A DNA stretch of 64,000 nt from Escherichia phage ESCO13: sequence record NC_047770.1; one strand, written 5' to 3'. Below, piece by piece: positions 4,915-55,472 of this stretch (position 1 is its first letter; each line of letters starts with the position of its first letter). The notes below the pieces were generated by a model, which did not search any database, was not told the origin of the DNA, and saw only the letters and a program-made list of their open reading frames with translations. The translations under genes and the position numbers were made by a program.

Positions 4915-5402
4915 TGGAAAGTGAGATCTTACCAGGTGACGATACAGATTGGGAAACCATTATCAAAAAGATGATGGACCTTGAACAAGTTCAAATCGAA
5001 GCTGGTTTTTTAACAAACAAAAGGCATCCTGAATCAGATCTCACTATTCCTGCAATAGCAGCTATTCAACAATATGGTAATGAAACAAACAACATACCTG
5101 CTCGCCCTTTTATAACAGATGGTGCTGTTATCTCACAGAACAATATCGCTAAAAAGATGAAGCAGGTTTTTGCAAATTACCTAATGAACAATGTTGGGTT
5201 GGCTGTTTTTGAGCCTATAGCGAGAGCCTCTAGAGAAGGAATAGCTCAAGCGATTGCAATGCAACGTTATCGTCCTTTATCTCCTGTGACAATTAAGATA
5301 CGACAAGATAAAGGCAACTATTCTAATCATATCTTAATAGATACGGCATATATGATAAATGCAATCGAAACAAAAATCACAAAAAGCAAGTCTAAAAAAT
5401 AA
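4914..5402 (+). CDS. Hypothetical virion protein (neck or tail completion candidate)
   Basis: 162 aa; start overlaps the previous stop (ATGA-type coupling); position between capsid and sheath. Confidence 0.35.
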   Translation: MESEILPGDDTDWETIIKKMMDLEQVQIEAGFLTNKRHPESDLTIPAIAAIQQYGNETNNIPARPFITDGAVISQNNIAKKMKQVFANYLMNNVGLAVFEPIARASREGIAQAIAMQRYRPLSPVTIKIRQDKGNYSNHILIDTAYMINAIETKITKSKSKK

Positions 5403-5864: not shown

Positions 5865-6495
5865 TATTTACCAACAAATAGAAGCATACGAAAATGCCAT
5901 CTACTTAAATATAGGTGGCTTCCTTCAAGAATTAGTGGGGTTGCCAGTCTATGTTATGGATAAGCCATTCATTAAACCGGATACTCCTTACCTAGCACTA
6001 CGTATTATCACTTCCAGCGATTCTGGAGGTTGGTCTTACCGAAGCTCTATTCAAAATGATATGTATTCCTACGAGATGGATAATACCTACGAGATTGAAC
6101 TCGTAGCCTATCGTGGAAGACCTACCACTTTGATGAGCTATGTTCTGGCTGCTCTCCGTGGTGCAGAGGAATTAAAATACAAACATCTCTATTCTAAAGG
6201 TCTTGGTTTTTTAGGAGCCTCTAATATAGCTCAAGCCAATACAATTGTAGACGGAGATAAGACTGAATTAAGAGCGCGTATGGTTATGACGTTCAACACT
6301 CGCATGAGTATTGAAGATATTGCTACTACACCAATAGAAGCAATCAACATGCACATCCGTTCATTCAGAGATAGTTACAATGATCCTATCCCTTTAGATT
6401 TAATTCTAAACAGGGTTTATGCAATTACTTTGGTTCCAGGCGAATACTCGTCAGTTAATCAAAATGGATCATTATTTAACAACCCTACCGAATAA
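5836..6495 (+). CDS. Hypothetical protein (tail terminator/sheath initiator candidate)
   Basis: 219 aa; possible alternative start TTG at about 5857 after AAGGAGG; immediately upstream of the sheath gene. Confidence 0.4.
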   Translation: MEQKEETLANIYQQIEAYENAIYLNIGGFLQELVGLPVYVMDKPFIKPDTPYLALRIITSSDSGGWSYRSSIQNDMYSYEMDNTYEIELVAYRGRPTTLMSYVLAALRGAEELKYKHLYSKGLGFLGASNIAQANTIVDGDKTELRARMVMTFNTRMSIEDIATTPIEAINMHIRSFRDSYNDPIPLDLILNRVYAITLVPGEYSSVNQNGSLFNNPTE

Positions 6496-45497: not shown

Positions 45498-45526
45498 AGT
45501 ATAACACGATAGAGGCTTTATTGCAA
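45498..45526 (-). promoter_or_regulatory. Sigma70-like promoter candidate on the minus strand (TTGCAA-N17-TATACT)
   Basis: Minus-strand reading gives TTGCAA, 17-nt spacer, TATACT, then RBS and the hydrolase start; a GC hairpin (about 45527-45547) abuts the -35. Confidence 0.45.
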
Positions 45527-45565
45527 GAGGGGGACTTCTCCCCCCTCAAAATCATTTGTTAATTA

Positions 45566-46168
45566 TTATGGACATTCATACCATTCTTTTTTACCACCGA
45601 AGGCCATCACCACATCGCAAATATCCAGACCAGCTTTACCTACACCATATGCTTTCAGCTTCCATTCTCCATCTTCACGAACCAGGGAAGCCACGTGGCA
45701 GATTGTGTTGCCAGCTACTTCAGGAGCCAGGAAGTCAAAATCCAGAATTTCCACATTGCGCTCGGAGTCGAAGATTTTAAGCATACCTTCAGAAGCATGA
45801 CCAAAACGTTTCAGACCTGTATCATCATCAATGGTCAGAACAAAGGCAATCTCTTGTGCATCAGGAGAGATTTTAGCCAGAGTAATATCAATCTGCTCCA
45901 TGCTGCCAGTTCCATCACGAACATCGTCACCAGCGAAGGTAGAACGTTCAGGATCAAACTTGTTAGCATAGCAAACCAGATGACGTGCAGATAGCATTTC
46001 AGGATTGCCAGCGGCATTGTGACGACAAACCAGTGCACTTACATCCAGATCCAGTTTAGAATCAGATTTCCAAGAGAATTCCAGACGCAGTTCTTTCAGA
46101 GCCGGAGCAACTTTCTTCAGGGAAATTTTTTCGCTAGAACCTTTTTTCAGGGAAATTTTATCAGTCAT
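45566..46168 (-). CDS. terD: TerD-domain protein
   Basis: 200 aa; N-terminus MTDKISLKKGSSEKISLKK (TerD-type ISLxKG strand, duplicated); acidic GDDVRDGTG region; size typical of TerD. Confidence 0.65.
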   Translation of the reverse strand: MTDKISLKKGSSEKISLKKVAPALKELRLEFSWKSDSKLDLDVSALVCRHNAAGNPEMLSARHLVCYANKFDPERSTFAGDDVRDGTGSMEQIDITLAKISPDAQEIAFVLTIDDDTGLKRFGHASEGMLKIFDSERNVEILDFDFLAPEVAGNTICHVASLVREDGEWKLKAYGVGKAGLDICDVVMAFGGKKEWYECP

Positions 46169-46183: not shown

Positions 46184-46453
46184 TTATTTAAGTGTAATAC
46201 CAGTTACAGTCAATTCTACTTCCAAAAGCTTAGATGTGTTTTGGATTGATACTAATTGTGCATGATGGTTTAGTTCTACAGCAGAATAATCATTTTCCCC
46301 ATCATCTACTTTTAAATAAACAATGATTTCACTAAGGTCTAAACCATTTTCGTCAAATGCATTTTCATAGACGAAAGTATCTCCTACATCCAAATCTTTA
46401 ATGGTAAGGCATCGTTTATTTACTTTTTGCTCATCAATTTCGAAGTTTAACAC
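46184..46453 (-). CDS. Small acidic protein, paralog A (upstream partner of TerD)
   Basis: 89 aa; paralogous to 47475-47819 (DLDVGDTFVY...LEVELTVTGITLK versus DLDVGATFMY...VEVDLEVTNITLKKEK). Confidence 0.45.
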   Translation of the reverse strand: MLNFEIDEQKVNKRCLTIKDLDVGDTFVYENAFDENGLDLSEIIVYLKVDDGENDYSAVELNHHAQLVSIQNTSKLLEVELTVTGITLK

Positions 46454-46682
46454 TTCTTCCTCCTAATGTTATCTCCGGTTTGTATATACGAAGAATTATA
46501 GCATTTTCATTTTCTTTGTCAACCCATTCTTCATAATCAGGCCATACATGAATCTCTACTCTACTTACAATATCTTCCATTCGCACAGTCCCAATGAAAT
46601 ACTCTTTGAGACTGCGCATAATGAAAGCTTCTCTCTCGCGCCAATAATTTTCTATGACTTGAGAGGCAAGCTCGTCGATCAT
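46434..46682 (-). CDS. Hypothetical protein
   Basis: 82 aa; start overlaps the vWA stop. Confidence 0.4.
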   Translation of the reverse strand: MIDELASQVIENYWREREAFIMRSLKEYFIGTVRMEDIVSRVEIHVWPDYEEWVDKENENAIILRIYKPEITLGGRSVKLRN

Positions 46683-47473
46683 TTTTTAGCACCTACTTTA
46701 ACAACCCACTCTCCGAACTCTTCAGATAAGAGTTTGTCATAAAGCTCTGAATCTGTCAAGTCTAAATCTTTAATGCCAATAAAACCAACATTATCATAAG
46801 CATTTGCCAGTTCTTTCAGGAAGCCAAACTTCTCATTACCAACGCCAACCATGAACCAATAAATAGGTTTATTCTTATTCTCTTCAATAAGACGACGAAC
46901 AGCACTAGGATCACCATTCTCACCATCCGTCTGGAAGAATACAACACCAGGGGTAACGTCAGCACCTGGTTCAGACACAGCTACAACCTTTTCACGCTCT
47001 ACAGATACTGTTTCAGTTTTACCAAGCAGACGATTAAAGAAGCCTTTCTTTGGAGCCTCCTCTTGTACCACTTGTTTAGTGGTAATATATTTGGTAACAG
47101 TGCCAAAATACTCATCGTAGATATCTGCCATTACAGGGGCGTAATTTGTTCCACCTCCGATACGAACATTACGCATACATTTACCAACATAGTCATCGTA
47201 AACGTCTGCTGTTGCTGGAGTAAGCTCTTGGGAACTCGTATTGAAGGCCCACATATCAATTTGTTGATTATCGTCGAACAGCATACCAAAAGGAAGCAGT
47301 TTACCTACAAAATCACTCACTACCCCACTAGAATATAGACCATGCATACTACCAGAAATATCTAGAGCACATGCTACACGAAGAACAATCTTACCTTCAT
47401 TCAGGTTCTTATTCTTTTTCAGAGAGAAAGCAAGGTTTTCTTGACGTTTTTTCAGGCTGATTTTCTCGGACAT
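46679..47473 (-). CDS. von Willebrand factor A domain protein (TerY-like)
   Basis: 264 aa; MIDAS motif DISGSM, GGTNY and TDGENG elements; N-terminus MSEKISLKK resembles the TerD N-terminal strand. Confidence 0.65.
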   Translation of the reverse strand: MSEKISLKKRQENLAFSLKKNKNLNEGKIVLRVACALDISGSMHGLYSSGVVSDFVGKLLPFGMLFDDNQQIDMWAFNTSSQELTPATADVYDDYVGKCMRNVRIGGGTNYAPVMADIYDEYFGTVTKYITTKQVVQEEAPKKGFFNRLLGKTETVSVEREKVVAVSEPGADVTPGVVFFQTDGENGDPSAVRRLIEENKNKPIYWFMVGVGNEKFGFLKELANAYDNVGFIGIKDLDLTDSELYDKLLSEEFGEWVVKVGAKK

Positions 47474-47474
47474 A

Positions 47475-47819
47475 TTATTTCTCCTTCTTAAGTGTAATAT
47501 TGGTAACTTCTAAATCTACTTCCACCATATTTGTATCTGGTGGGATGCAATGAGTATAGCCTCGTTGTGCTAGTGATCCATTAATACAAATCGCACTGTT
47601 TGTGGAATTTTTAATGAACACCAAGTTACGGTAGGTATCCAACCCTGCGTCTTCATAGGCATCATAATACATGAATGTGGCCCCTACGTCAAGATCTTCG
47701 AAAGCAATAGGTAAATCCTGACTTTTTTCTTCTTGAATATTGAATCTAAACACGCATACCTCCTCTACCAATTTTGAAGCCCAAATCGTAAGCTTCCTTA
47801 GTGATCTTTTGTAACTCAC
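47475..47819 (-). CDS. Small acidic protein, paralog B (upstream partner of vWA; GTG start)
   Basis: 114 aa; paralog of 46184-46453; the homologous region starts about 22 residues in. Confidence 0.45.
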   Translation of the reverse strand: MSYKRSLRKLTIWASKLVEEVCVFRFNIQEEKSQDLPIAFEDLDVGATFMYYDAYEDAGLDTYRNLVFIKNSTNSAICINGSLAQRGYTHCIPPDTNMVEVDLEVTNITLKKEK

Positions 47820-48309
47820 TTATAGGAAGTGTTACAAGAGGATCATCTTCTTCAATTTCCATCTTGTCATCTTCTGTTTCAATGAGAGTATTATGCACTT
47901 TGTGATAAGGGTTGTCAACACGTTTAAACTTATTCTTTTCTGTGCTGAAAAAACAATCTGGATCTTCTTCGCCATCACCCCAACCTTGGTTAGGATCTCC
48001 GTCAGATTGTTCTGTAGGGATTTCACCTGTAAAATACTCTTCCAGCACCATAGCGATACCATCCCTTGGATTCGAGGAATGCATTAAATCACAAACCTTA
48101 CCCCAATCCATAGCCCATTCGAACCGTTCACGAACGCCATTTTCATCCTCCTTTCCAGAGAAAACACAACCATAACTATCATAGTTGCCATACATCTCTT
48201 CAATAACAACACCGTCCTTCAAAAGAAAGAGATAACAAGGTGATCCGTCGAAAGAAGTAGAAAGGGCAGCTTTGCCCGATTCTTTGCACAAAAAGCTAAA
48301 ACAACCCAT
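47746..48309 (-). CDS. Hypothetical acidic protein
   Basis: 187 aa ORF, coupled to neighbours. Confidence 0.4.
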   Translation of the reverse strand: MGCFSFLCKESGKAALSTSFDGSPCYLFLLKDGVVIEEMYGNYDSYGCVFSGKEDENGVRERFEWAMDWGKVCDLMHSSNPRDGIAMVLEEYFTGEIPTEQSDGDPNQGWGDGEEDPDCFFSTEKNKFKRVDNPYHKVHNTLIETEDDKMEIEEDDPLVTLPISELQKITKEAYDLGFKIGRGGMRV

Positions 48310-48678: not shown

Positions 48679-48878
48679 TACTCCTCCTCCTCCTCATTGA
48701 AGTCAATATCTGCAAGGAGTTCGAATTTACGGAAGTTACGACAACCTTCATAAATATAACAATCACGACAAACTGCTAGAACACTTGGGGGATATATGCC
48801 TCCCATCGGCGCGAATCGTTTTTCGTCATCATAACGGACACCAATGTCCTCATCAATTATATAGATACGGATTCTCAT
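48678..48878 (-). CDS. Hypothetical Cys-containing acidic protein
   Basis: 66 aa; CRDCYIYEGC; poly-Glu C-terminus. Confidence 0.35.
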   Translation of the reverse strand: MRIRIYIIDEDIGVRYDDEKRFAPMGGIYPPSVLAVCRDCYIYEGCRNFRKFELLADIDFNEEEEE

Positions 48879-49987
48879 TTACCAAGCCCTCGTTTCACAG
48901 CAGCTACCATCCCGTCTTCCAAAGATTGAACTTCATTAATATAATCAACACGAGCAGCACGGGCTTCCGTATTGATGCGGTTAGTTTCTTCCAACATCTT
49001 AACCAAGTTTTCCTGATCGTGACGCAGAGTTTCAATATCCAACACTTGACGGTTAGCCAGTGCTGCTGCTTCGATCTGATTCTGTGTGGCAAGATCGCTA
49101 CCCAGTTTAATTGCCAGGTTAAATTCATCAAGAACGTTATTCTGCGTCTCTGCTGCTTTCATTTGACGTAAGCTCTCGATATACATTGAGAAGTTAGCAG
49201 AGTAAGCAGGAATAACATTATTTACTATGTTACGCGCAGATCGCATTAAGCTTGCAGAAACTTTTTGCATACCTTGTACACGCGGTCCCATTTGGACACA
49301 CAGTAGGCGCAATGCTTTTAAATCTGCAATACGAATCTCCAGAAGATCCAAAGTATCTCGGATCACTTGTCGCTGTTCTACTGCATCTTCTGGAAGAGCA
49401 GCCAAAGCTTGTTCTTCTTTTTCATAGGTTGCTGTTAGAAGCTGCATATCTCGGTTCAAACTTGCAGCATATTGTCCAATAGCTTGATGTAGCTTTTCAA
49501 GATATACCAAGGAATCTTCTTCTTTGCGAATATCCATTTGAAGGTTTTTTACCAACTCTTCAATACGGTTATTAACATTATCAAACTCCCCAAACAGATC
49601 TTCTTTCATACCCATAACTTTTTTAATGAGTTTAGTAATACCCTTGCTTTGTTTAATAGAGTTTGGATCAAGTTGTTTTGCCTGTTTAATCAAAGCTGTG
49701 AGTCGTTCACTCATCTGATCGCCTTGATTACTACGTTGATGTTTTAATACCTCGGCATTCAAGGAACGCAAGGTTGTTCCTGCCTCTGCCCCAATCTCTT
49801 CGATCTCTTGTCGGGTCATAGAAGGCAAAACTGGAACTTCTTGCGGTGCCGCTGGTGCATAAACAGGACTGGCATCTAACACGCTTGGAGCGAATACAGA
49901 TTTACTTGCATCTGTTGTTGCAGCAAATACGCTCATTTCAGGCTTCTTCTGACCGCCAGTAGCTGCTTTTAAAAATGGACTTGTCAT
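48875..49987 (-). CDS. TelA-like (toxic anion resistance family) helical protein
   Basis: 370 aa, helical/coiled-coil throughout; size and composition resemble TelA/YceH-family proteins; supported by the TerD/vWA/TerC context, not by a confirmed motif. Confidence 0.4.
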   Translation of the reverse strand: MTSPFLKAATGGQKKPEMSVFAATTDASKSVFAPSVLDASPVYAPAAPQEVPVLPSMTRQEIEEIGAEAGTTLRSLNAEVLKHQRSNQGDQMSERLTALIKQAKQLDPNSIKQSKGITKLIKKVMGMKEDLFGEFDNVNNRIEELVKNLQMDIRKEEDSLVYLEKLHQAIGQYAASLNRDMQLLTATYEKEEQALAALPEDAVEQRQVIRDTLDLLEIRIADLKALRLLCVQMGPRVQGMQKVSASLMRSARNIVNNVIPAYSANFSMYIESLRQMKAAETQNNVLDEFNLAIKLGSDLATQNQIEAAALANRQVLDIETLRHDQENLVKMLEETNRINTEARAARVDYINEVQSLEDGMVAAVKRGLGK

Positions 49988-52199: not shown

Positions 52200-53174
52200 T
52201 TAAACAGTAGCTTCTTCTTTTTCAGGGAAGATAAAGCTTGCAATAACACCAAGAGATAATGTGCCTAGAACAATCATCAGACTTACGTTAGGGGAAATAT
52301 CATGCGGGAGGAATGACCACTTGGCATGAAGTGTTTCACCGAACGGGTGATACATAAGTTTAGCACCAACAAACACCAGAACCACAGCAACAGCTTTCTC
52401 TAAGTGAACCAGATATTTCACAGCTACACTTAACACAAAGAAAAGTGCACGTAAACCAAGAACAGCCATCAGCATTGCAGAATAAACTAGCAGAGGTTCT
52501 TGTGTCACACCGATCACAGCCGGAACTGAATCAAAAGAGAAGACAATATCTGTAAGCTCAATAACAAACACACAAAGAAGAGCAGGAGTTGCATATTTAA
52601 TACCATTCTTAATGGTGATGAACTTTTCACCATCCAGTGCATTGTGCACAGGCAGAACTTTACCTACTAAACGAACAGCCCAATGTTTAGAGTAATCAAT
52701 ATCCTCTTCTTCGTCACCACCTTTGATGATAGCCACGGCAGACCAAGCTACAATCAAACCGAACAACACTTGGACCGACCAATGAAGGTTAAACAAAGCG
52801 GTCCCTGCTGCAACAAAAATACCTCGGAAGACAATGGCTCCTGCAATCCCCCAAAGTAGAATCTTATGTTGGAGATGTGTGCTCTTAATTCCAAAGCTTG
52901 CAAAAATTGCCATGAACACCATTAGGTTATCTACAGAAAGACTCTTTTCCAACACATAGCCACTTAGGAAAAGCGCGGCAAACTCTTTACCATGTTCTAC
53001 CCAAATGAATGCGTAATACCCTAAAGCTAAAGCAATCCAAAAAACAGACCAAAGCAAAGCAGATTTAATTCCAATTTCTTTATTCTCTTTATGACCAAAG
53101 AAATCGATACCAATAGACAATGCTAAAATACCAACTAAAACAACTACATCAATAATTGGGAAACCGAGTTGCAT
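52200..53174 (-). CDS. terC: TerC-family integral membrane protein
   Basis: 324 aa, multi-pass membrane protein; signature segments EKSLSVDNLMVF and ELTDIVFSFDSVPAVIGVT (the two TerC repeats). Confidence 0.8.
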   Translation of the reverse strand: MQLGFPIIDVVVLVGILALSIGIDFFGHKENKEIGIKSALLWSVFWIALALGYYAFIWVEHGKEFAALFLSGYVLEKSLSVDNLMVFMAIFASFGIKSTHLQHKILLWGIAGAIVFRGIFVAAGTALFNLHWSVQVLFGLIVAWSAVAIIKGGDEEEDIDYSKHWAVRLVGKVLPVHNALDGEKFITIKNGIKYATPALLCVFVIELTDIVFSFDSVPAVIGVTQEPLLVYSAMLMAVLGLRALFFVLSVAVKYLVHLEKAVAVVLVFVGAKLMYHPFGETLHAKWSFLPHDISPNVSLMIVLGTLSLGVIASFIFPEKEEATV

Positions 53175-53487: not shown

Positions 53488-54027
53488 TTAAAGTTTATAA
53501 ATAGTCACATCGTGACCTGTTTTTACTAAAGTTTCTTCAATCATCACTTGGATGATAGCCCAATTACCTCCGGCATGTCCCGCTCCAATCATAGGTAAAC
53601 CGATCTTACATTTTTGGTCACGGAGAAGCAAATCATTAGCCATAGCTATTAGTGCATCGTAAAGTGCATCATAGTCCAACTGACGACCTTTAGCATTGTA
53701 TCCGTAACGGTATTGCCCGTATAGATTATATACCAAAGGGTCTGATTGTTCGTCTGGCACCCCTAAACTAAAAGAACCTAACTTACTTTGATCACCAGCC
53801 ATTGTGTCTAAATCTGCCGCATATGCATAAGGGAATGCTCGTTTAATTTGCGGAGCAATTCCTGCTCCCATATTACACATACAATTGCAACAATGAGCAA
53901 TAACAGTTACTTCACCTGCTTTAGCGGCATCAATAAGATTACCTGTTTTCATTTTAAGCATTTTTAGCTCCTTATTACAGAATGTGTTGTTTTGTGTAAC
54001 GATCCAAGAATTCAAAGTTTTCAGCAT
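53488..54027 (-). CDS. Macro-domain-like protein (probable start ATG at about 53961)
   Basis: VIAHCCNCMCNMGAGIAPQIKRAF and IGLPMIGAGHAGGNW resemble the macro-domain ADP-ribose-binding signature; internal ATG with RBS AAGGAG avoids overlap with the PRTase. Confidence 0.45.
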   Translation of the reverse strand: MLKTLNSWIVTQNNTFCNKELKMLKMKTGNLIDAAKAGEVTVIAHCCNCMCNMGAGIAPQIKRAFPYAYAADLDTMAGDQSKLGSFSLGVPDEQSDPLVYNLYGQYRYGYNAKGRQLDYDALYDALIAMANDLLLRDQKCKIGLPMIGAGHAGGNWAIIQVMIEETLVKTGHDVTIYKL

Positions 54028-54802
54028 ACTTTGAAATTCGGTTGTAACCTTCTCCCAAACATCCGAAGAAAAGTTGCTCTACATAGTAGTGTGGCAATTG
54101 GCTAAGAATGATTTTGAAGTCTTCGTGATTTTGGCCCATAAGATACTTAATAGGACGAACAAGACACTGTGCATCACGTTCTTCATTAATCATTTTAACA
54201 AACGCTTCTGGTGTATTGATGTAGTTAAAATTCAGTTTAGCTTCAGTATCTGCTTGATTACCTTCATATTTTGCAAAATACAAGAAGTAAACATCATTTT
54301 TAACTTGATTTTCATCAAGAATCTCAATCAGTTTGTCTTCATGAGTTCCGGTGATATTTACATCATCAATGAACACAAGCTTCTTATCACCCCAGAATTC
54401 TTTGTTGCAGTAGAATGTATCCCCATCAATAAGTTTCTTACGACTAGCTTTATCCAAGAAACCATAATCGTTGATATAGCTAACTTTACGATGAATAATA
54501 TCCAGTTCTGCTGAACGACCTTGATCATATTGTGCTTGCAACATATTAAAGTAATTAATAAAATGATCTGTCATCATTGTTGCAGCATTGTGCACATGGT
54601 TATAAGGAGAAGGGATGATAACAAATTGTTCCCCAATATGTTTCATTGCCACTTGAGCAAAAAACTGAAGTGCCAATTCTTTACCCATACGACGCGCAGC
54701 TTGGTTACTACCAAATTTCAATTTTGAATAGTCTTTGATATCAAAAGTAGCAGTTTCCAGGTCATCAAATTTATTTGCAAAAATTTGAGTTTGATTACGC
54801 AT
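53975..54802 (-). CDS. Type I phosphoribosyltransferase-fold protein
   Basis: 275 aa; PRPP-binding-like loop KLVFIDDVNITGTHEDKL. Confidence 0.55.
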   Translation of the reverse strand: MRNQTQIFANKFDDLETATFDIKDYSKLKFGSNQAARRMGKELALQFFAQVAMKHIGEQFVIIPSPYNHVHNAATMMTDHFINYFNMLQAQYDQGRSAELDIIHRKVSYINDYGFLDKASRKKLIDGDTFYCNKEFWGDKKLVFIDDVNITGTHEDKLIEILDENQVKNDVYFLYFAKYEGNQADTEAKLNFNYINTPEAFVKMINEERDAQCLVRPIKYLMGQNHEDFKIILSQLPHYYVEQLFFGCLGEGYNRISKYAENFEFLDRYTKQHIL

Positions 54803-55472
54803 TTACAATTTCTCCTCTTTTAAGTTTCTCTAGTAAATCGTTAGGGTTCTTAATATGACAGAAGTTAATCCCTATGTCAACACATTTACCATCAAATTCT
54901 TCGCTGTCCCCAACATGTAAAATCTCTTCAGCCTTCAAAGGAATGCTTGAATATGTGGCGGTCCTAACAAAGAATCTAGGATCTGGTTTACATAACAGAT
55001 GTTCGTCTGAAAAATGCATAAATTCAAAACAATTCCAACTGTCGAACATACAAGCACGACGCAAAATATCCCCAGATATAAAATTAGTATTGCTTTTAAT
55101 ACTAAGATCATATTTACCAGACAAGTATAGCAAACAAACTGGCAAATCTAAAGCGATATGTGGAGGAAATTTAAGAAACCATTGCTCACACTCAAAACGC
55201 ATTTGTGCAGATTCTACAGGGGTTAAACCTATCTTTCTTCCCAACATATTCCATGCATATGCTACACCTTCTGCACACCCATTTAGTGCAGCATTATCCA
55301 TAATTTCTTTGGCATCTTTATATGCTTCTTTTGCCGCACGTTCAGACATTCTACCATATGTAGCAATAGTGTGCGTACGTGCATCTGCATAGTTTTGATT
55401 GGCAGAAATAAGAGTATTCCATACATCAAAAGAAATATGTTTTATTGTCATACTAGGCCCACCACGCATCAA
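54795..55472 (-). CDS. HAD-superfamily hydrolase-like protein (variant motif I)
   Basis: Motif I-like ISFDVWNTL (Trp where the second Asp is expected); motif III CKPDP; motif IV VGDSEEFD. Confidence 0.45.
   Translation of the reverse strand: MMRGGPSMTIKHISFDVWNTLISANQNYADARTHTIATYGRMSERAAKEAYKDAKEIMDNAALNGCAEGVAYAWNMLGRKIGLTPVESAQMRFECEQWFLKFPPHIALDLPVCLLYLSGKYDLSIKSNTNFISGDILRRACMFDSWNCFEFMHFSDEHLLCKPDPRFFVRTATYSSIPLKAEEILHVGDSEEFDGKCVDIGINFCHIKNPNDLLEKLKRGEIVNA

Follow-up and report, generated by a model that had tools for sequence, protein, structure and literature searches.

The 64,000-nucleotide stretch of Escherichia phage ESCO13 (NC_047770.1) analysed here, below called the window, carries two genes for small acidic proteins, one directly upstream of a gene for a TerD-domain protein and one directly upstream of a gene for a vWA-TerF-like protein, and both of these larger proteins start with a KISLKK motif. 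How did this arrangement arise, and what does it say about the way in which the four products belong together? The sequence-only reading explained it by the duplication of a small-protein-plus-TerD unit, one copy of which gained a vWA body. Another explanation is, on balance, probable: the small proteins are phage-only paralogues of a Ter (tellurite-resistance-like) module that are fixed beside the vWA/TerD pair, the small gene alone was duplicated, the N-terminal element belongs to the whole vWA family, and vWA and TerD would act as a split TerF with small barrels as accessories. The genes and elements concerned are the following.

46184..46453, minus strand: small protein A, 89 amino acids, isoelectric point (pI) 4.26, modelled as an all-beta barrel; directly upstream of TerD
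47475..47753, minus strand: small protein B, 92 amino acids, pI 4.43; directly upstream of the vWA gene
45566..46168, minus strand: TerD-domain protein, 200 amino acids (PF02342, E 3.2e-28)
46679..47473, minus strand: vWA-TerF-like protein, 264 amino acids (PF10138, 130.1 bits against a cut-off of 29.4), with an intact metal ion-dependent adhesion site (MIDAS)
46112..46168, minus strand: TerD N-terminal element, residues 1-19, MTDKISLKKGSSEKISLKK, inside the TerD domain; the Pfam and 2KXT alignments start at residue 5
47414..47473, minus strand: vWA N-terminal element, residues 1-20, MSEKISLKKRQENLAFSLKK, similar to the TerD N-terminus and outside the Pfam vWA model

Small proteins A and B are true, old paralogues. 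BLASTP aligns them significantly over their full length (E 2e-14, 34% identity, 54% positives), and the DLDVG.TF.Y core and the C-terminal EV.L.VT.ITLK motif are invariant between them. Both also match phrog_11278, a family of unassigned function, over its full length, with E 7e-45 for A (residues 1-89 of a 92-position profile) and E 4e-51 for B (1-92 of 92). The paralogy, the shared motifs and the acidity that the sequence-only reading had proposed are thereby borne out. Its two open reading frames (ORFs) exist on the minus strand, and the limits of the first, 46184-46453, stand; the second, taken as 47475-47819 (114 amino acids), contains 22 extra in-frame codons that overlap the upstream 187-amino-acid gene. 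The true start of small B is the GTG at 47753, because an AGGAGG is found 5 nucleotides upstream, the annotation of phage UP17 has the same coding sequence of 279 nucleotides, and the alignment to the family hidden Markov model (HMM) begins at residue 24 of the stop-to-stop frame. From this start, B begins with MFRFNIQEEK, to be compared with MLNFEIDEQK in A.

The family to which both belong is small. A word-indexed search with small A alone returned near-identical proteins only; remote members were reached by a search seeded with a six-sequence alignment, which gave 23 clusters, and by an exhaustive profile search of 1.84 billion representative proteins, which gave 24 matches. About 20 of these 24 are family members or fragments of 54-93 amino acids, and the other four are long proteins matched over short stretches only. 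Long matches were set aside as repeat-driven or partial, P0087 consisting of tandem repeats of about 94 residues and P0097, P0099, P0101 and P0102 matching over short stretches. All family members are acidic (pI 4.3-5.5). AlphaFold2 gave a confident all-beta model of the small protein with seven strands (pLDDT, predicted local distance difference test, 83), the nearest structural neighbours of which are many uncharacterised small phage proteins. The family is made up of phage-only, acidic proteins of about 90 residues, modelled as a small beta-barrel. No match to the small proteins was found in Pfam, NCBIfam or PADLOC; a DUF5006 match (E 0.046) in these scans, which also covered the neighbouring 82- and 187-amino-acid ORFs, was below threshold and disregarded. 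The idea that they are fragments of TerD or vWA was rejected, as profile-profile comparison indicated no relationship (E 0.45 and 0.12, respectively).

At every locus examined, the small gene adjoins the vWA/TerD pair, while the arrangement varies as follows.

small-vWA-TerD: Justusliebigvirus (outra) and Klebsiella phage 05F01
vWA-small-TerD: eight remote metagenomic lineages, and a ninth contig (L005) that ends just upstream of the small-TerD pair
vWA-small-small-TerD: metagenomic loci L010/L011
small-vWA-(81/82 amino acids)-small-TerD: Phapecoctavirus-like phages only (the window, phiWec181 and locus L012)

Ten remote family members were looked up, and each was located either between vWA and TerD or immediately in front of TerD. 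The other neighbours are variable across loci and include the 187-amino-acid, 82-amino-acid, 193- to 239-amino-acid and Band_7 genes. In the window the family HMM finds exactly two copies; in Caulobacter, Brevundimonas, Bacillus and Acinetobacter phages it has no match in the neighbourhood of vWA and TerD. ORFs of 87 to 92 amino acids upstream of TelA in Caulobacter and Brevundimonas phages were considered as candidate members and rejected, having neither an HMM match nor any sequence resemblance.

A neighbour-joining tree places the pre-vWA copies (B) of three genera in one clade and the pre-TerD copies (A) of the Phapecoctavirus-like phages in another. The identity between A and B is 26-42%, which is about the same distance as to the remote members. 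Moreover, a distant metagenomic phage has tandem small genes of 90 and 87 amino acids, 31% identical, between vWA and TerD (L010 1180-1725 / L011 257-802), and from this independent tandem duplication it follows that the small family duplicates repeatedly. The simplest reading is that the duplication concerned the small gene only and preceded the divergence of the Stephanstirmvirinae genera, with no sign of a TerD-type gene duplicating along with it. The slot directly before TerD appears to be the ancestral one, kept by copy A, with copy B placed before vWA; on the simplest reading, copy A was later lost outside Phapecoctavirus, namely in Justusliebigvirus and the 05F01 lineage.

If the small gene was duplicated by itself, the like beginnings of the two downstream proteins need an explanation of their own. 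The vWA protein starts with MSEKISLKK and TerD with MTDKISLKKGSSEKISLKK, and a six-frame translation of the window contains the pattern K[ILV][SA]LKK at three places and no others, one in the N-terminus of vWA and two in that of TerD. Because the Pfam domain of the vWA protein begins at residue 31, its first 30 residues form an extension. In a profile-profile comparison of vWA with TerD (hhalign), the alignment is confined to the first 19 columns (58% identity, E 6e-4, probability 28%), in agreement with the likeness first noted from the sequence. The motif is also present in orthologues: in an alignment of 41 vWA family members, bacterial ones included, L7, K9, L18 and K20 are conserved in at least 90%. 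As hSLxK...hSLxK it precedes the vWA domain family-wide, in bacterial stand-alone proteins, in the linkers of TerD-vWA fusions and in phages without the small gene, and the fusion linker element is also matched by the N-terminal part of the TerD profile. The TerD-like start is thus a property of the whole vWA-TerF-like family and not of this phage, and therefore the shared KISLKK start is not a relic of the small-gene duplication.

These results bear directly on the model in which a small-protein-plus-TerD-type unit was duplicated, one TerD body was replaced by vWA and ISLKK was left behind as a remnant of TerD. It would account for two paralogous small genes that each precede a KISLKK-starting protein and for a vWA N-terminus that is TerD-like at the profile level. 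It is contradicted by the presence of the element in vWA-TerF-like proteins of bacteria, in small-gene-free phages and in TerD-vWA fusion linkers, by the independent variation of the small gene in number and position (relatives have a single small gene, in either position, together with both vWA and TerD), and by the AlphaFold2 model, in which residues 7-20 of vWA form a helix and not the beta-hairpin of TerD. Such a cassette duplication is highly improbable.

Beyond the family-wide element, the N-termini of vWA and TerD change in step from genome to genome: in each genome, the start of vWA is closer to that of its own TerD than to the start of any other TerD, as can be seen from the following pairs.

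Window: vWA MSEKISLKK, TerD MTDKISLKK
L007: vWA MTEKVSLKK, TerD MTAKVSLKK
L010: vWA MTEKLSLKK, TerD MAKLALKK
CcrColossus: vWA ..INLAK, TerD ..INLTK
Bambus: vWA ..VIDLEK, TerD ..VIDLSK
CcrSC: vWA ..LSVEK, TerD ..LSVEK
Acinetobacter phage 313: vWA LQFDLVK, TerD LQFDLCK
Gallionellaceae metagenome-assembled genome (MAG): vWA MAINLQK, TerD MAINLEK
Rhizobium phage TM39: vWA LDLTK, TerD LDLNK
Pseudomonas phage M5.1: the same two motifs in vWA and TerD, with their order swapped

Over seven variable positions, the number of identities is 4.0 for cognate vWA-TerD pairs and 1.6 for non-cognate ones. When eight deep lineages are represented once each, no pairing other than the true one attains the observed score (exact permutation p = 1/40320); an earlier version of the permutation with nine lineages gave a p of about 1e-5. 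Even three related Caulobacter/Brevundimonas phages have INL, IDL and LSV, each like its own TerD. Independently evolving paralogous segments should be no more alike within than between genomes, so that this co-variation indicates concerted evolution or co-evolution. Since it also holds in lineages without the small protein, it is independent of the latter.

A shared N-terminus could also arise without any meaning at the protein level, either by short-tract gene conversion or because both genes need an A-rich, unstructured region for translation initiation. The motif is indeed AAA-rich in coliphages, and in L012 the 5' ends of the vWA and TerD genes (4984-5010 and 6279-6305) share 21 identical nucleotides (GAGAAAATTAGTCTGAAAAAA), while TerD of close relatives uses other codons; this stretch is suggestive of micro gene conversion now and then. 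By contrast, the window itself and most of the relatives encode the shared residues by different codons (ATC AGC versus ATT TCC in the window, including AGC and TCC for serine), which points to selection on the peptide; for the window, recent gene conversion was rejected on this ground as a full explanation of the common start. The GC-rich Caulobacter phages co-vary too, with codons that are not A-rich, the motifs of Pseudomonas phage M5.1 are shared in swapped order, and motif positions are conserved in at least 90% of the vWA family. We therefore regard a mere by-product as decidedly unlikely. Within each genome, the vWA N-terminus would rather be kept like that of its own TerD by selection on the protein, with occasional micro gene conversion.

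The tag is lysine-rich (KhSLKK) in every lineage that has the small protein and in none of the lineages without it. Lysine-rich tags beside acidic small proteins are a suggestive combination that would be compatible with an electrostatic contact. A bolder version of a split TerF builds on this. In that version, a genome-specific N-terminal address peptide co-evolves in TerD and vWA, and vWA plugs into the TerD assembly or a common Ter receptor by mimicking TerD, so that strand or peptide mimicry would hold the split TerF together; in Stephanstirmvirinae-like phages, with their KhSLKK tag, the acidic SH3-like small proteins would be readers or chaperones of the tag, with one paralogue per client in Phapecoctavirus. 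We hold this version to be unlikely.

The gene junctions tie each small gene closely to its downstream neighbour. As the sequence-only reading had it, each small ORF is directly followed by a gene for a KISLKK-starting protein: the stop codon of small B lies 1 nucleotide before the vWA ATG, with the ribosome-binding site of vWA held by the C-terminal codons of small B (AAGAAGGAGAAATAA), and that of small A lies 15 nucleotides before the TerD ATG. From the 187-amino-acid gene through small B and vWA to the 82-amino-acid ORF, the stop codon of each gene overlaps or adjoins the start codon of the next. Two further elements frame the small A-TerD pair.

46495..46522, minus strand: perfect sigma-70 consensus promoter TTGACA-16-TGcTATAAT (12/12 match, with extended -10), inside the 82-amino-acid ORF and about 40 nucleotides upstream of small A
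45527..45547, minus strand: GC-rich hairpin GAGGGGG-7-CCCCCTC, 19 nucleotides after the TerD stop, read from the sequence

No other site in the 64 kb fits the sigma-70 consensus perfectly, and 0.06 such sites would be expected by chance. It is kept at the same place in phiWec181 and L012/L013; small A of phiWec181 and L012 is only 44-47% identical to that of the window. The hairpin is likely to mark the end of the small A-TerD transcript; it was not called in a terminator scan because no T-run follows it. With the conserved promoter upstream and the hairpin after TerD, small A-TerD of Phapecoctavirus looks like a self-contained two-gene unit that is probably expressed early. A promoter-like site, TTGCAA-17-TATACT with a TG (45498-45526, minus strand), is seen directly after the hairpin and before the gene of a SleB-like hydrolase.

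The linkage of the small genes to vWA and TerD could still be an accident of descent. In that case the small proteins would have nothing to do with Ter and would be ordinary phage accessory genes, for example for host takeover or anti-defence, whose placement reflects inherited gene order. The carriers do have a backbone in common, in which TelA precedes the locus and SleB-like Hydrolase_2 and glycosyltransferase-like genes follow it, other Ter-bearing phages are without the small family, and the structural neighbours mentioned above are many uncharacterised small phage proteins. Against this, the small gene moves and duplicates and yet never leaves vWA/TerD, even at about 20-30% identity, while other neighbours change, and its junctions with the downstream gene are tight or overlapping. 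We consider inherited order as the whole explanation to be unlikely.

Several observations nevertheless weigh against small proteins that serve a split TerF. The small family is carried throughout by phages of a single broad lineage, the backbone of which is conserved, with a SleB-like hydrolase downstream, and for this reason part of the synteny could reflect inheritance and not function. Ter modules also exist without a detectable member of the small family, both in the TelA-vWA-TerC-TerD phages of Caulobacter, Brevundimonas, Rhizobium and Pseudomonas and in an Acinetobacter phage with a TerD-vWA-TerC-like order. In the tree of the small genes, the bootstrap support of clade A and of clade B is only 66%. 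Finally, AlphaFold2 models residues 7-20 of vWA as a helix (pLDDT 82-95), whereas the TerD counterpart lies in the beta-sandwich domain, so that the likeness of the two N-termini may be one of sequence and not of structure.

With these points taken into account, the split TerF with accessory barrels would work as follows. TerD and vWA would associate non-covalently as the equivalent of a fused TerF. Docking would take place through the shared N-terminal element, either onto each other or onto a common partner from the Ter module, for instance TelA or TerC. The small acidic barrels are probably accessory subunits or adaptors of this vWA-TerD assembly, and translational coupling could ensure that they are made in a fixed proportion with the downstream partner. 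In Phapecoctavirus, the small A-TerD pair would in addition have its own strong host-type promoter.

The TerD protein scores 98.9 bits against PF02342 (gathering threshold 25.3), with residues 5-179 aligned to positions 3-177 of the 187 in the model. The MIDAS motif of the vWA protein consists of D38-x-S40-x-S42, T109 and D183; D38, S42, T109 and D183 are invariant in the 41 sequences and S40 is conserved in at least 90%. Its AlphaFold2 model (pLDDT 92.7) matches the copine-type vWA domains of BON1 and RGLG in Foldseek. Inserted in the domain model is a long beta-hairpin arm (residues 125-169) with a short helix carrying KGFFnrLlGK at its tip. Residues G144, F145 and G151 of the arm are conserved in at least 90% of phage and bacterial family members, and the modelled arm could be a membrane- or partner-binding element. 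Band_7 (SPFH) genes were also seen near TelA/vWA/TerD in two remote relatives (L050 2095-2574 and L052 1-296), a proximity that hints at a link to membrane microdomains.

Ter systems are widespread in bacteria, plasmids and phages, and how their parts assemble and act is still poorly understood. The locus offers two starting points, a phage-only small protein genomically locked to vWA/TerD and an N-terminal element that changes in step in TerD and vWA; both point to a physical vWA-TerD complex, which would be the split form of TerF. The duplication itself is ordinary, and the co-varying tag is the part worth following up. If neither the small-protein linkage nor the co-variation holds, what is left is an ordinary gene duplication in an already described type of phage Ter cluster.

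The surroundings of the four genes place them in such a cluster. With genomes of Phapecoctavirus (phAPEC8-like E. coli myophages, Stephanstirmvirinae) the region shares 99-99.6% identity, the figure for phage nieznany being 99.6%. All genes of this region are on the minus strand, and the order of Pfam families along transcription is PRTase_3, Macro, TerC, SprT-like, TelA, vWA-TerF-like and TerD, followed by the SleB-like hydrolase. The other genes of this region are listed below.

53975..54802, minus strand: PRTase_3 (ComF-like phosphoribosyltransferase; PF15610, E 6e-42), of the metabolite branch of Ter systems
52200..53174, minus strand: TerC-family membrane protein (PF03741, E 3e-40)
48875..49987, minus strand: TelA-like protein (PF05816, E 3e-33)
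47746..48309, minus strand: 187-amino-acid ORF of unassigned function (phrog_14928), upstream of small B; stop codon in overlap with the start of small B
46434..46682, minus strand: 82-amino-acid ORF of unassigned function between vWA and small A (phrog_22387, E 8e-58)

The 187-amino-acid ORF is also found upstream of small B in Justusliebigvirus outra and is absent there in L012. The 82-amino-acid ORF, which overlaps vWA by 4 nucleotides (ATGA) and small A by 20 nucleotides, is restricted to Phapecoctavirus-like phages, with homologues of 80-81 amino acids at the same place in phiWec181 and L012. Neither ORF has a match in Pfam, NCBIfam or PADLOC. PRTase_3 has on one side, at 53488-54027, a protein whose Macro-domain match is at the Pfam threshold (E 1e-4) and on the other, at 54795-55472, a weak match to HAD-like hydrolases (E 0.0014); together, the three would form the nucleotide-metabolite branch of the Ter module. 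A nicotinate phosphoribosyltransferase, a PRPP (phosphoribosyl pyrophosphate) synthetase and a macro-domain gene near the locus of Pseudomonas phage M5.1 echo the phosphoribosyltransferase and Macro genes of the window.

The Ter stress-response system is understood here in the sense of Anantharaman, Iyer and Aravind (2012), as summarised in PMC7824862. TerD, vWA, TelA, TerC and PRTase_3 co-occur in the window, all with significant Pfam matches. Phage Ter modules with TelA, vWA-TerF-like, TerC and TerD are known from jumbo and other phages (PMC7824862), and Klebsiella phage phiKp34 carries one (PMC8386662); the roles suggested in both papers are exclusion of competing phages or protection against stress. 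The window region belongs to this known type of phage Ter stress or exclusion module, and its biological output would be superinfection exclusion or stress protection. A fixed order of TelA-vWA-TerC(DUF475)-TerD, with no member of the small family, is seen in L014, L016, L053, L056 and L058, which are Caulobacter, Brevundimonas, Rhizobium and Pseudomonas phages.

Some database records that carry this locus need care with regard to their labels. An 18.6-kb contig (L018, JAEZZU010000159.1) assigned to a 'Proteobacteria bacterium' MAG carries TerD beside a vWA gene whose product shows 100% identity to that of the window, and is probably phage DNA placed by error in a bacterial MAG. Records MG065639/MG065689, OP562383 and OR584014, named as Campylobacter, Acinetobacter and Pseudomonas phages, carry a coliphage-type locus like that of the window. 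The Acinetobacter-named record is 99% identical in DNA over the 2.9-kb query, with a vWA protein identity of 100%, and the Campylobacter-named records have a vWA 66.5% identical to that of the window, the same figure as for phi92-like coliphages. The host labels of these records look doubtful.

Compared with what has been described, the Ter module and the TerD and vWA-TerF-like families are known, and the small proteins are without a characterised relative. Neither the small family nor the co-variation is mentioned in the passages on TerD, TelA and vWA of PMC7824862 and PMC8386662; besides these two, full-text searches yielded only a paper on tellurite resistance and one on a swine-farm phage. 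Both small proteins match PHROG 11278 end to end, and the remote members P0086-P0100 extend the family beyond it. SH3-like small beta-barrels, such as the C-terminal part of ribosomal protein L2, EF-P domain I/KOW, FeoA and Tudor/PWWP, give only weak scores with the small proteins and would stand for a fold class, not for family membership; they have neither sequence similarity nor a common functional motif with them. TerD matches its Klebsiella pneumoniae counterpart (2KXT; the Streptomyces structure is 3IBZ) with E 1.5e-15 over the whole length, including the doubled N-terminal hSLxK, and differs in being a phage copy that has a lysine-rich version of the motif (KISLKK twice). The vWA protein belongs to the same family as that of TerF-type fusions (PF02342 + PF10138), in which the hSLxK...hSLxK element sits between the TerD and vWA domains. 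It is not itself such a fusion, as its 264 amino acids give no TerD match in Pfam: TerD and vWA are separate here, and vWA has only about 20 TerD-like N-terminal residues. Like the published phage Ter modules, the window has TerD, vWA-TerF-like, TelA, TerC and phosphoribosyltransferase genes as well as a weak HAD-like match. Unlike in those modules, TerC does not lie between vWA and TerD, and the vWA/TerD pair is flanked instead by a small barrel protein without annotation, in one or two copies.

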